From Corallococcus sp. AS-1-6 (GTDB taxonomy: Bacteria; Myxococcota; Myxococcia; Myxococcales; Myxococcaceae), in the NCBI RefSeq assembly GCF_020037015.1, contig NZ_JAIQDE010000007.1:51886-115885 (forward strand): a stretch of 64,000 nt of DNA, given 5' to 3'. Within the stretch, counting starts at the first letter, position 1; the number at the start of each line of letters is the position of its first letter. The notes beneath the pieces were generated by a model, which saw only the letters and a list, made by a program, of their open reading frames with translations, was not told where the DNA came from and made no database searches. Positions 10,535 through 29,681 of the stretch are shown here, piece after piece. The translations under genes were made by a program, and so were the position numbers.

Positions 10535-11210
10535 GCAGGCGAGGGAAGAGGCGGCGTTCGCGCGGGGCGATGTCGGCGTGGACGGCGCCGCCACGGAAGA
10601 GGAGAAGGACGAAGCCGAAGTCGAAAAAGGCAAGGCGCGCGAACAGCTCCTGCGCGGCCGGGCCTACCTGGGCCGCGAGTTCATGACGTGGCTGTTGTGG
10701 CGCTCGGAGTCGGGCGACCCGCTGGTCGAGCACGACGGCGCGGGCGTCGTCGTCCTCTTCCTGGGCAAGGTGGTGCTGCGGGGCGTGGCGGGCGACGTCA
10801 CGGAGATGAGCGCCAAGGGAACGCTGGCGCCGTATTCGGAGAACGTGCGCCACTCGCTGGACCGGGGCCTGCTGGTATCGCAGGCGCGGCTGCGCCTGTC
10901 GCACGGCGAGCGCGAGTACGAAGTCACGCTGGATTCGGAGTTCCTGGACATCCGCGCCGCCAAGCTGCCCGCGCTCATGACGGAGGAAGAGGATGATCAG
11001 CTCTCCGAGCGTCTGGAGTTGACCGAGCAGCTCTCCGCCATCGTGGACGCGCTGGTGCAGGACTTCCTGGCCGTGCGCGCCGGCCGCGCCTGGAGCAAGC
11101 AGGTGGTGCCCGCGATGAAGGAATGGATGAAGGGCGAGGAGAAGGGGAGCGACCTGCTCTCCAAGGCCGCCCGAGCCCGGGGCCGTGACGCCCGCGCCGC
11201 CCGGGGCTGA
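10521..11210 (+). CDS. RdgC-like protein, C-terminal part (second frame); its 3' end carries the island attachment repeat
   Basis: ATG 10521 overlaps the previous stop. 'REFMTWLLWRSESGDP' ~ RdgC 'ELTLTEWVRSGSAAQG', and the C-terminal helix LELTEQLSAIVDALVQDFL ~ FILMTGELAALIQNLIEGL. The last ~25 codons are duplicated at 29608-29681. Confidence 0.4.
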   Translation: MARREQAREEAAFARGDVGVDGAATEEEKDEAEVEKGKAREQLLRGRAYLGREFMTWLLWRSESGDPLVEHDGAGVVVLFLGKVVLRGVAGDVTEMSAKGTLAPYSENVRHSLDRGLLVSQARLRLSHGEREYEVTLDSEFLDIRAAKLPALMTEEEDDQLSERLELTEQLSAIVDALVQDFLAVRAGRAWSKQVVPAMKEWMKGEEKGSDLLSKAARARGRDARAARG

Positions 11211-11213
11211 GCG
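11131..11213. repeat. left copy of imperfect direct repeat (putative attL) covering the 3' end and stop of the rdgC-like gene
   Basis: 'agggcgaggagaaggggagcgacctgctctccaaggccgcccgagcccggggccgtgacgcccg(cgcgccgcc)cggggctga' compared with 29608-29681. Identical except gag/cac (2 nt) and a 9-nt indel. Confidence 0.8.
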
Positions 11214-11226
11214 CCTCCTGTTTGTC

Positions 11227-11254
11227 CTGTGCTCCTTTCCCTGAAGGAGCACAG
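11227..11254 (+). terminator. stem-loop (9-bp perfect stem ctgtgctcc/ggagcacag) just downstream of the rdgC-like stop
   Basis: Inverted repeat read directly from the sequence. There is no clear U-tract, so the terminator function is inferred. Confidence 0.3.
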
Positions 11255-28245: not shown

Positions 28246-29576
28246 GCTCTCCTGCGTTCCATGGAGTGAATATGGACGACAACCTTCTGCTCTCGTTCGA
28301 AGGTGCTCTCGCGCATCAGGCTGACTTCGAGCGCGAGTTGGAGCCCTTCCTGCAGGCGCTTGAGGCGGGTGCCGGCGAGTGGATGCCGGACATCGTCAAG
28401 GGGAAGCGGCCACAGAGCTACTCTCGTGCTGCCATCTGGAGAATCCTGAAAGAGGAGCGCGGCGAAAGAAGCACCTCCGTTGGGCTCTATCGCAAGAAGT
28501 GGCCCATGTTGGATATGTCGCTCCGGCTCAGGCTTCCGCCTCTTCCTTCGAGCCTTCAAATATGGCTCGACGTTCAACCCCTCTCACTCTTTTCGAAGAC
28601 AGAGGAATGTTGGCGGTTCATTGAGATGGTCCGGTCATGGGCCATCCACTACCCGGCGCCGTATGCTTCGGCTCACAGCATGGCTGACCGTGAATTGGCG
28701 GGATTCCCCCATTTTGGCCGCGAAGCAGAGGTGTCTCGGAGGGATGGCTTCGACAAGGTTTACGAGGTGTGTTGGCTCAACGTCTTCGGTTCGAAGCTGG
28801 TCGAGTCCGTAGGCCGAGAGCGGATGCTCTCAACGCCTGCGCGCCTCGTGGAGGAGCTTCCCAACGGCTCCGTCCTCCTGATCCTGTGGCCTACCCCTGC
28901 GGACTTCGCGAGCGACGATGCGCGCGTTGCCCAGGCCCGAGCGCATGTCCACCTGCGGCCAGACCTCGACTTCGACACGGTGCTTCGCAGGCTGAGAGCG
29001 CGCAGCGCCGCGCTCGTCCCAGTGGTGCCCCACTTCCACCCGGACCTGGCGCCGCTGCTCTCTCGGTTGCCAGACACGTTCGCCATCAGCGAGCGGCAGC
29101 AGAAGATCGCCGAACTCAACGTCTTCCGGCCACCCGAGCCGGAGGAGTGGCTCCCGGCGGCGTTGCCATCAGACGTGGAGAGTCAGGAGCGCGTCCTCTC
29201 CTCCTACGGAGAGCTGTCCGAAGGACTCGTCGCCGCGCTGCACATCCACTTGCCATCCCTCATGGACGCAACGCCCGAGTCCCTCACGGACCTCGACTTC
29301 CACCTCTGGCGGGAGAACTTTCCGGAGCGCTACACAAGGGAACTCATCGACGCGCACACGGCCCCGGCCGTGGGTGCCTACCTGGGCGGCATCCTGGTGC
29401 GCCGGCTGGGGGGGGAATGGGTGCCACGGAAGAAGCTGGAGGAGTCCCAGGTGCGGGTCGGCGAGCGCGTCTGGCTGCCCTTCCTCCGAGCCCGCCGGTA
29501 CATGCAGTCCCGCCAGTCGCTGCTGGACTACTCGCTCACCCAGTTCTTCCATGAGGTGGAGCGGTTTCGTTCCTGA
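28242..29576 (+). CDS. hypothetical cytoplasmic protein (candidate immunity/partner protein)
   Basis: ATG overlaps the lipoprotein stop (ATGA). No signal peptide and no recognisable domain. Confidence 0.4.
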   Translation: MSSPAFHGVNMDDNLLLSFEGALAHQADFERELEPFLQALEAGAGEWMPDIVKGKRPQSYSRAAIWRILKEERGERSTSVGLYRKKWPMLDMSLRLRLPPLPSSLQIWLDVQPLSLFSKTEECWRFIEMVRSWAIHYPAPYASAHSMADRELAGFPHFGREAEVSRRDGFDKVYEVCWLNVFGSKLVESVGRERMLSTPARLVEELPNGSVLLILWPTPADFASDDARVAQARAHVHLRPDLDFDTVLRRLRARSAALVPVVPHFHPDLAPLLSRLPDTFAISERQQKIAELNVFRPPEPEEWLPAALPSDVESQERVLSSYGELSEGLVAALHIHLPSLMDATPESLTDLDFHLWRENFPERYTRELIDAHTAPAVGAYLGGILVRRLGGEWVPRKKLEESQVRVGERVWLPFLRARRYMQSRQSLLDYSLTQFFHEVERFRS

Positions 29577-29607
29577 GCCGGCGACGGCTTCGTTGAAGGA
29601 CGGCCAT

Positions 29608-29681
29608 CAGGGCGAGGAGAAGGGGAGCGACCTGCTCTCCAAGGCCGCCCACGCCCGGGGCCGTGACGCCCGGGGCTGAGT
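29608..29681. repeat. right copy of direct repeat (putative attR; orphan 3' fragment of the rdgC-like gene including a stop)
   Basis: 'agggcgaggagaaggggagcgacctgctctccaaggccgcccacgcccggggccgtgacgcccggggctga' is near-identical to 11131-11213. It is not part of a homologous ORF. Confidence 0.8.

Follow-up and report, generated by a model that had tools for sequence, protein, structure and literature searches.

How did an 18.5-kb block of accessory DNA come to stand directly behind the stop codon of a conserved gene in Corallococcus sp. AS-1-6, bordered on both sides by the 3' end of that gene, and did a site-specific recombinase put it there? The block lies in a stretch of 64,000 nucleotides (nt) of the draft genome (NCBI RefSeq assembly GCF_020037015.1, contig NZ_JAIQDE010000007.1, positions 51,886 to 115,885 of the forward strand), which is called the window here and to whose numbering all coordinates refer unless another locus is named. 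An earlier interpretation of the same letters, made without database searches (the sequence-only reading), had taken the block for an island of ~18.4 kb inserted into the 3' end of an rdgC-like gene by classic integration with attL and attR. Comparison with related genomes shows that 11212-29680 is a genuine strain-specific, horizontally acquired, composite genomic island without an integrase. The repeat at its distal end is, as judged from its alleles and its extent, no minimal att core; it reads as what is left, head and tail (31 nt + 71 nt), of another copy of the target gene, here named gene X, with non-coralloides alleles. The landmarks at the two island ends are as follows.

9884-10534, plus strand: RdgC-family core gene, 216 amino acids (aa) in orthologous loci (Pfam PF04381 RdgC, E 2.4e-9; weak NCBIfam RdgC matches)
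10492-10522, plus strand: native junction of the rdgC 3' end and the X start, the source-type sequence of the 31-nt piece before copy 2 (repeat family at 87%)
10521-11210, plus strand: gene X, conserved hypothetical, 229 aa (open reading frame with a GC content at third codon positions, GC3, of 0.88; 14-nt overlap with the rdgC stop)
11132-11211, plus strand: direct repeat copy 1, of the type resident in C. coralloides (GAG; 9 nt not deleted)
11212-11467, plus strand: non-coding left end of the island, including a 12-bp-stem hairpin (the match to the empty-site strains stops at 11211; junction identical in CP102579)
29577-29607, plus strand: 5' piece of the decayed second X copy, comprising the rdgC' 3' end and the lost X' start, ATG to ATC (27/31 to 10492-10522)
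29610-29680, plus strand: direct repeat copy 2, the 3' piece of the decayed second X copy (identical in CP102579)
29696-29731, no strand: native hairpin in the gap where the X and DUF5953 genes converge (the empty-site strains have it too; conserved in L001)

Gene X, which is otherwise unannotated, is intact, the island starting right after its stop codon, and adjoins rdgC syntenically in loci from 25 species; the upstream RdgC-family gene is called as a 216-aa RdgC in loci L029 and L032. The sequence-only reading was thus right that the repeat duplicates a gene's 3' end, and wrong about the gene, which is X, with the RdgC-family gene lying upstream of it. X gives no match in Pfam, NCBIfam or PDB, and was rejected as an RdgC paralogue (BLASTP E 80; no RdgC match even at Pfam E up to 10).

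When filled and empty sites are compared, the insertion is seen directly. In C. coralloides KYC2213 (L001), the matches to window positions 521-11211 (99.2%) and 29609-39673 (99.0%) overlap on a single repeat copy, and contig JAIQDD010000010 (L029, GCA_020036995.1) has the same arrangement at ~99% identity to the window. At both of these empty sites, the hairpin comes straight after X, and then the DUF5953 gene that the window carries at ~29.7 kb. The sequence-only reading had predicted just this in relatives, the gene followed by the sequence now at ~29.68 kb. The net insertion measures 18,469 bp (11212-29680). A second filled site exists in the complete genome CP102579.1, where the island sits at the same place and both the left junction and the 105-nt remnant are identical to those of the window; since the AS-1-6 draft and the complete CP102579 are independent assemblies with identical junctions, an assembly artefact is rejected. 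The island was not found in any other species examined. Its genes have a GC3 of 0.82-0.88, versus 0.93-0.98 for most flanking core genes, with X itself at 0.88.

Between the repeat copies lie, as had been noticed from the letters alone, a defence operon (11468-24314) and a toxin-like cassette (24624-29576). By its domain content, the four-gene operon is a putative anti-phage system of the DISARM-class-1/ARMADA-like type, a variant of known families; the cassette is a predicted sitBAI outer-membrane-exchange toxin/immunity (kin-killing) cassette and thus belongs to a known family.

The repeat is imperfect, with the two substitutions and the 9-nt indel first noted for it. Copy 1 (11132-11211, 80 nt) comprises the final 26 codons of X, the TGA stop at 11208-11210 and one G. 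Copy 2 (29610-29680, 71 nt) is identical to it over the first 41 nt, differs by two adjacent substitutions (GA at 11173-11174 versus AC at 29651-29652) and has a 9-nt deletion, which amounts to one unit missing from the near-tandem CGCCCGCGC/CGCCCGGGG. Chance would not be expected to give such a match (0/100 shuffles; blastn E 1e-27). Copy 1 equals the sequence of the empty-site strains except for one single-nucleotide polymorphism (SNP) private to KYC2213, at 11205; copy 2 carries a foreign-type allele (CAC; 9-nt deletion) up to ~29666, followed by 14 nt common with copy 1 (CGCCCGGGGCTGAG). As also noted earlier, copy 2 is inside no related open reading frame: it falls outside X-related genes, and the 101-aa frame that encloses it (29374-29679) only overlaps the 3' end of sitI, in another frame. 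Both copies are followed by strong hairpins, with a 12-bp stem at 11227-11254, 17 nt past the X stop (whole-fold energy -29 kcal/mol), and a ~15-bp stem at 29696-29731 (-41 kcal/mol); the stems had been described as perfect and are in fact near-perfect, with one G-U pair and one bulge.

Directly before copy 2 stands a further 31-nt piece, 29577-29607, which the sequence-only reading missed and which matches the junction of rdgC and X at 10492-10522, its first 16 nt exactly (chance 16-mer matches expected, 0.01). Head and tail of the gene are both present at copy 2, which therefore appears to be an internally deleted second X copy whose former length would have been 720 nt or more; from its interior ~610 nt are missing, and ATG and GGCGAGG microhomologies occur at both endpoints of the deletion. 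Its alleles are not those of the resident gene. The head matches the resident sequence at 27/31 positions and several other Corallococcus species at 28/31, and the tail matches C. exercitus SDU142 at 57/58 and resident X at 56/58. In all, the remnant differs from resident X by 6 substitutions in 89 aligned nt, versus ~1% between filled and empty strains, so that it is not a duplicate of resident X made at insertion; it came with the island or is much older. It retains an ancestral C where 4/4 strains of the C. coralloides group have A, and has unique changes of its own. That copy 2 belongs to a live paralogue is rejected, its start being changed from ATG to ATC, its interior gone and its frame different from that of sitI. 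The sequence-only reading had itself considered that the 29.6-kb copy might be the tail of a genuine rdgC paralogue, which comes close to what is found, namely the remnant of a foreign second X copy; X is no rdgC, however, and the copy is not live. Exact-pattern scans gave 0 matches to the left-end hairpin in metagenome and viral contigs and 0 matches to the remnant junction in metagenome contigs.

A recombinase that could have acted on these ends was sought throughout the window. Integrase, transposase and resolvase domains are absent from the island reading frames (Pfam, NCBIfam, PADLOC) and from the rest of the 64 kb (Pfam), as the sequence-only reading had stated of integrases. The Pfam scans covered the island frames and most high-GC3 frames at 5987-11210 and 29738-63991, and the frames at 1-5900 and 34633-39831 were covered via precomputed Pfam calls on their L029 orthologues only. 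The 10 kb on each side of the island, which are syntenic with the empty-site strains, contain no annotated recombinase. A recombinase hidden in frames of no known function was also considered and rejected, the frames at 24.3-29.6 kb being sitB, sitA and sitI. The window contains no tRNA or tmRNA gene, and these are accordingly rejected as the target. The island ends have no terminal inverted repeats, no arm-type repeats and no common k-mers of 10 nt or more; a transposon-like insertion is rejected on the missing inverted repeats and shared end motifs, and because a 'target duplication' of 71-80 nt is far too long. Downstream of X, a second X tail occurs in 0/24 other species loci. The locus therefore shares with an att-bounded element the repeat of a gene's 3' end at both flanks and the single-copy empty site in close relatives, and this part of the earlier claim of classic attL/attR integration stands; it does not share the cognate recombinase, its repeat is not limited to an att segment but includes the X 5' boundary, and the same site is not used in other genomes.

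The place of insertion is itself unusually variable. In every species the sequence is a different one as early as the base that follows the X stop, and the X stop thus forms the left edge of a hypervariable hotspot, the right boundary of which is formed by the DUF5953 and major-vault-protein genes:

29738-30499, minus strand: DUF5953 gene of the right flank (Pfam PF19378, E 1e-116; island-linked SNP cluster at 29689-30041)
30815-33427, plus strand: bacterial counterpart of the eukaryotic major vault protein (homologue by Pfam Vault, Vault_2/3/4, MVP_shoulder; E down to 6e-45), kept in most Corallococcus loci examined

In C. carmarthensis (L015, 9848-17350), an unrelated cargo of 7.5 kb occupies the site between X and DUF5953, without a repeat and without a recombinase; it encodes a PLA2G12-like protein, two GDSL lipases, three oxidoreductases and a LysR regulator. 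DUF5953 genes adjoin toxin-like genes at the same site in L005 and L015. In L006-L009, L011, L013 and L014, an AT-rich motif, CTGAAACATCyrGAwTAAAACA..., is found ~5-60 nt past the X stop in DNA of ~70% GC.

Among the four strains at ~99% identity there is no consistent clade structure. SNPs were counted as island-linked where they are common to both island-bearing strains and different in both empty ones. Six such SNPs occur in 9.7 kb of the left flank, none of them in the last 1.4 kb, and the right flank has eight within 29689-30041. The region 29682-30200, which covers the 3' half of the DUF5953 gene, differs by 3.3% between the island-bearing strains and by ~4% from the empty-site strains, over a background of ~0.9%. 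The distribution of the island-linked SNPs fits a spread of the island, together with a short right-flank piece, by homologous recombination. The two island copies diverge by ~0.6%, versus 0.8-0.95% in the flanks, and the island is thus no very recent arrival.

The account of these observations that we favour, with somewhat less than even confidence, is a homology-driven insertion of the Campbell type into the hypervariable hotspot, followed by spread through recombination in the flanks. The incoming DNA, circular or circularised, would have carried a foreign rdgC'-X' beside the cargo; a possible donor would be a lineage in which the cargo had built up in the same hotspot, downstream of X', which would explain the terminator-like hairpin 17 nt past the X stop at the left end of the island. 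A single homologous crossover with the chromosomal X, near the strongly conserved 3' end of the gene, would yield the order X-cargo-X', in which the left-hand X stays intact and the right-hand X' is redundant. X' would then have decayed by loss of its start codon, by the internal deletion and by a 9-nt slippage deletion, and the island would have passed among strains of ~99% identity, probably by homologous recombination in the flanks; judging by the published biology of sitBAI, the cassette would favour retention of the island. In agreement with such an insertion, the flanking copy 2 and the 31-nt head carry non-resident alleles, and the presence of 31 nt of the X 5' boundary in the distal repeat makes a single crossover a better explanation than a minimal att core. 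The occurrence of the sitBAI and defence modules elsewhere, each separately and each without X, counts in the same direction.

Several points weigh against this account. By one informative SNP, copy 1 is of the resident type up to a point 36 nt short of the junction; a simple Campbell crossover would therefore need to have occurred in the final ~29-36 nt of homology, unless gene conversion or another recombination event came after it. The expected intermediate, with X complete in both copies, was found in none of the genomes examined; the genome collection was scanned with one genome per species, and the recombinase search extended over the 64-kb window, so that a gene elsewhere in the genome is possible. 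The SNP cluster on the right, finally, may reflect local hypervariability of the DUF5953 gene instead of co-transfer. A further-reaching version, in which the island would be a recombinase-free mobile unit that uses the decayed piece of its target gene as a portable homology arm, forms a circle or enters cells by DNA uptake, inserts via host RecA at the ultra-conserved last ~70 nt of X in different Corallococcus lineages and has its retention, along with that of the linked anti-phage operon, enforced by the addictive sitBAI, we hold to be quite unlikely; if true, it would constitute a natural 'suicide-plasmid-like' route for defence islands in myxobacteria.

The same observations can be read in other ways. 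A recombinase of the tyrosine or serine type, whether encoded at another place in the genome, provided by a helper element or since lost, could have joined an attP with an X-derived segment to an attB at the X 3' end, the repeats being attL and attR and the island a satellite or degenerate integrative element; the precise insertion at a gene 3' end with the gene left intact, the direct repeat and the clean empty sites would all be expected from such an event, the allele pattern confines any crossover to 14-29 nt at the stop codon in the manner of a core site, the island supplies its own hairpin after the restored gene end, and a related defence module stands beside a small Resolvase gene in a metagenome contig. 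We nevertheless consider site-specific integration unlikely here, as neither a recombinase nor an excisionase is encoded in the island or in the syntenic 10 kb on either side, the ends show no arm-type or inverted repeats, a second X tail was seen in 0/24 loci of other species, each cargo module is present elsewhere free of any X fragment, and an att site would have no reason to hold the 31 nt of the X 5' boundary. The right flank could instead point to a linear donor, which had the cargo on the upstream side of an rdgC'-X' (perhaps decayed by then) with DUF5953 after it, and which entered by one-ended, homology-facilitated illegitimate recombination, the right end being homologous inside the DUF5953 gene at ~30.05 kb and the left end illegitimate just past the stop of resident X. 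This also dispenses with a recombinase, and would account for the island-linked and window-private SNPs at 29689-30041, which exceed the background about ten-fold and have no comparable counterpart on the left, as well as for the contiguity of the remnant with a natural-looking order of X', terminator and DUF5953. It requires, however, a donor rdgC' truncated 43 nt before its stop, while rdgC-X is intact in the examined loci of 25 species; the 3.3% divergence of 29682-30200 between the island-bearing strains marks this region as hypervariable in itself; and a left junction exactly at the base after the stop would be fortuitous. Its chances therefore seem rather poor.

The direction of change bears on a further alternative, an ancient duplication of X in situ in the C. 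coralloides lineage, with the cargo gathered between the copies and the empty strains produced by repeated precise deletion. Direct repeats do permit deletion, the island divergence (~0.6%) is almost as high as that of the flanks, and the four strains lack a clear clade structure. Gain of the island is more parsimonious than loss, however, because all other species examined, outgroups included, lack it and because both empty sites show the markers of copy 1 (GAG and the undeleted 9 nt). Most crossovers that removed the DNA between the direct copies would fall in their shared 41 nt and so leave the markers of copy 2 behind. The GC3 of the island lies below that of most flanking core genes, the remnant is without the coralloides-specific substitution, and the data lean towards the island-bearing strains as a derived minority, with no hybrid repeat at the empty sites. 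Duplication in situ is thus very unlikely.

Set beside known systems, the island is of an ordinary kind, and no new kind of system needs to be proposed; the informative part is the remnant scar and the linkage of toxin and defence genes. Integrative islands, integrative and conjugative elements and prophages commonly occupy gene 3' ends between attL and attR, with tRNA-, tmRNA- and prfC-targeting examples. The present island resembles them as a strain-variable block of foreign composition that keeps its target gene, repeats the gene's tail and has a single-copy empty site; it differs from them in that genes for an integrase, an excisionase, transfer functions or phage proteins are all missing, in the nature of its distal repeat, a decayed gene copy that includes the 5' boundary, and in a site so used in no other genome examined. 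Campbell-type integration of circular DNA by a single crossover is the routine way of plasmid insertion in Myxococcus xanthus genetics, and there, too, a shared segment is duplicated at both sides, one copy intact and native and the other free to decay, host homologous recombination being sufficient; in contrast to this process, no natural circular donor is seen here, the surviving duplication comprises only 31 + 71 nt, and the inferred crossover is at the extreme 3' end. Integrase-free hotspots of defence and other variable genes, bounded by core genes, are an established concept of comparative genomics, and the locus conforms to it in holding different cargo in each species between X and the DUF5953 and vault-protein genes, with a core-gene stop as its left edge; unlike such hotspots in general, it has retained part of a foreign copy of its bounding core gene, a scar that records how one set of cargo arrived.

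The clean pair of filled and empty sites at ~99% identity presents a case of anti-phage and kin-discrimination genes arriving together in the chromosome of a myxobacterium, probably without a dedicated recombinase. The foreign core-gene remnant is a rarely preserved scar that points to homology-driven insertion at a hotspot over att/integrase chemistry, and bears on the detection of integrase-less defence islands and on models of their mobility. With an addictive sitBAI cassette physically linked to a DISARM/ARMADA-like operon, a testable mechanism suggests itself by which defence islands may be retained.

The left part of the cargo is the defence operon:

11468-16726, plus strand: YprA-type DEAD/DEAH helicase fused to MZB (DUF1998), 1752 aa, DruE-, DrmA+DrmB- or ArmC-like (Pfam DEAD, Helicase_C, MZB; PADLOC DruE E 1e-85, DrmA 6e-16)
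16748-19531, plus strand: Snf2-family ATPase, 927 aa, DrmD-, ArmA- or DpdE-like (Pfam SNF2-rel_dom, Helicase_C; PADLOC DpdE 5e-182, DrmD 4.5e-78)
19528-23529, plus strand: Eco57I/N6-adenine methyltransferase, 1333 aa, DrmMI-, ArmB- or type IIG-like (Pfam Eco57I, N6_Mtase; PADLOC DrmMI 3.3e-63)
23526-24314, plus strand: HNH_2 endonuclease, 262 aa, the last defence gene (Pfam PF13391; PADLOC HNH 4e-28)

With DISARM class 1 and ARMADA (PMC9142583; PMC13463889) the operon has in common the Snf2 ATPase (DrmD/ArmA-like), the large adenine methyltransferase (DrmMI/ArmB-like) and the YprA-type helicase with DUF1998, in which DrmA and DrmB are fused as in ArmC and DruE; it differs in having the helicase gene first and an HNH_2 endonuclease as its fourth gene. 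The architecture of DISARM class 1 and ARMADA has been described, with vsr or EEP domains in ArmC and a UvrD-like ArmD as the marks of ARMADA II (PMC13463889); Pfam and PADLOC scans of the island operon gave no match to PLD (DrmC), vsr, EEP or UvrD (ArmD).

The module also occurs outside the island. In Myxococcus sp. RHSTA-1-4 it is found at 87% DNA identity, on a different contig from the X locus of that strain; homology stops at 24277, after which toxin genes of the type VI secretion system (T6SS) type follow. At ~76% it is present in the Logan contig L028, which starts 90 nt before the helicase gene, and in the metagenome contig Ga0394880_0000029 (L034), which has no X fragment there. In the latter, genes for an AcrVA2-like protein, a Dam methylase and a small Resolvase precede the module (5745-9546), and Abi_C and CTD6/MC2 conflict-system genes follow it (22811-25268); this suggests a mobile-element context. 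The methyltransferases of AS-1-6 and CP102579 are 98-100% identical except in a block of ~85 aa, where they are ~50% identical (22906-23158, ~aa 1127-1212), and in which the window version resembles the RHSTA-1-4 allele; the block appears to have been exchanged as a unit and may be a specificity domain.

The right part of the cargo is the toxin cassette:

24624-26066, plus strand: sitB-like gene, 480 aa, with an N-terminal signal peptide, MFMRWSWVIVLLLLPGAGGAQE (from the translation; called as 480 aa in CP102579)
26056-28245, plus strand: predicted sitA-like lipoprotein toxin, 729 aa, lipobox LLTAGC-ASLP (from the translation)
28242-29576, plus strand: sitI-like immunity gene, 444 aa, or 434 aa from an alternative start (by family membership; its stop is the right boundary of the module)

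The published features of sitBAI are a type I signal peptide on SitB, an 11-bp overlap of sitB and sitA, and a lipobox on SitA (Vassallo et al. 2017, PMC5562445). The island cassette has the same layout, a gene for a signal-peptide protein that overlaps the lipoprotein gene by 11 bp and is followed by an immunity gene of a multi-copy family; it differs from the published one in lying off the Mx-alpha prophage-like unit and in being joined to a defence operon in an integrase-less island. COCOR_07554, COCOR_07546 and COCOR_01926 are listed as SitA1/2 homologues (PMC5562445, supplementary file 1), and the lipobox context of the sitA-like protein, TAGCASLP, is that of COCOR_07546, the comparison being of the lipobox context only. 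The sitI-like family has at least 1185 homologues, several per genome; in C. coralloides DSM 2259, its members COCOR_07555, COCOR_07547 and COCOR_01927 follow the sitA homologues COCOR_07554, COCOR_07546 and COCOR_01926, respectively. The C-terminus of the sitA-like protein gives no sequence match in Pfam or PDB, and no toxin domain by Pfam; the host genes traAB are located outside the window.

The toxin module at 24524-29577 is 88% identical to a cassette of C. exiguus (L026), the homology ending at the sitI stop (29577). It was considered whether the X remnant might be part of the sitBAI module, and this was rejected: in C. exiguus L026 as well as in Corallococcus sp. CA053C (L027), the match ends with the stop codon of sitI, and unrelated DNA follows. 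In L026, a 242-nt fragment of sitB is fused to a 3' fragment of sitI downstream of the cassette (11987-12347), and an inverted sitI-like paralogue lies upstream (4395-5729). The fusion is an internally deleted cassette remnant in the same style as the X remnant, which counts in favour of the decay proposed for X' in a homology-driven insertion.

The spacer of 209 nt between the two modules (24315-24523) is 3.35% divergent between the island copies, ~5x the rest of the island. A reading frame across it (24311-24712) and the long antisense frames show no coding signature. The part of L005 that matches 24410-24462 over 56 nt belongs to an unrelated toxin gene and is coding sequence of low complexity; the match was judged to be due to chance. 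In the core flank, unlinked to the island, a gene at 34633-36264 (plus strand) combines LysM with a T6SS VgrG3-like C-terminal domain, and a Fic/DOC-domain gene lies at 53482-54249 (minus strand).

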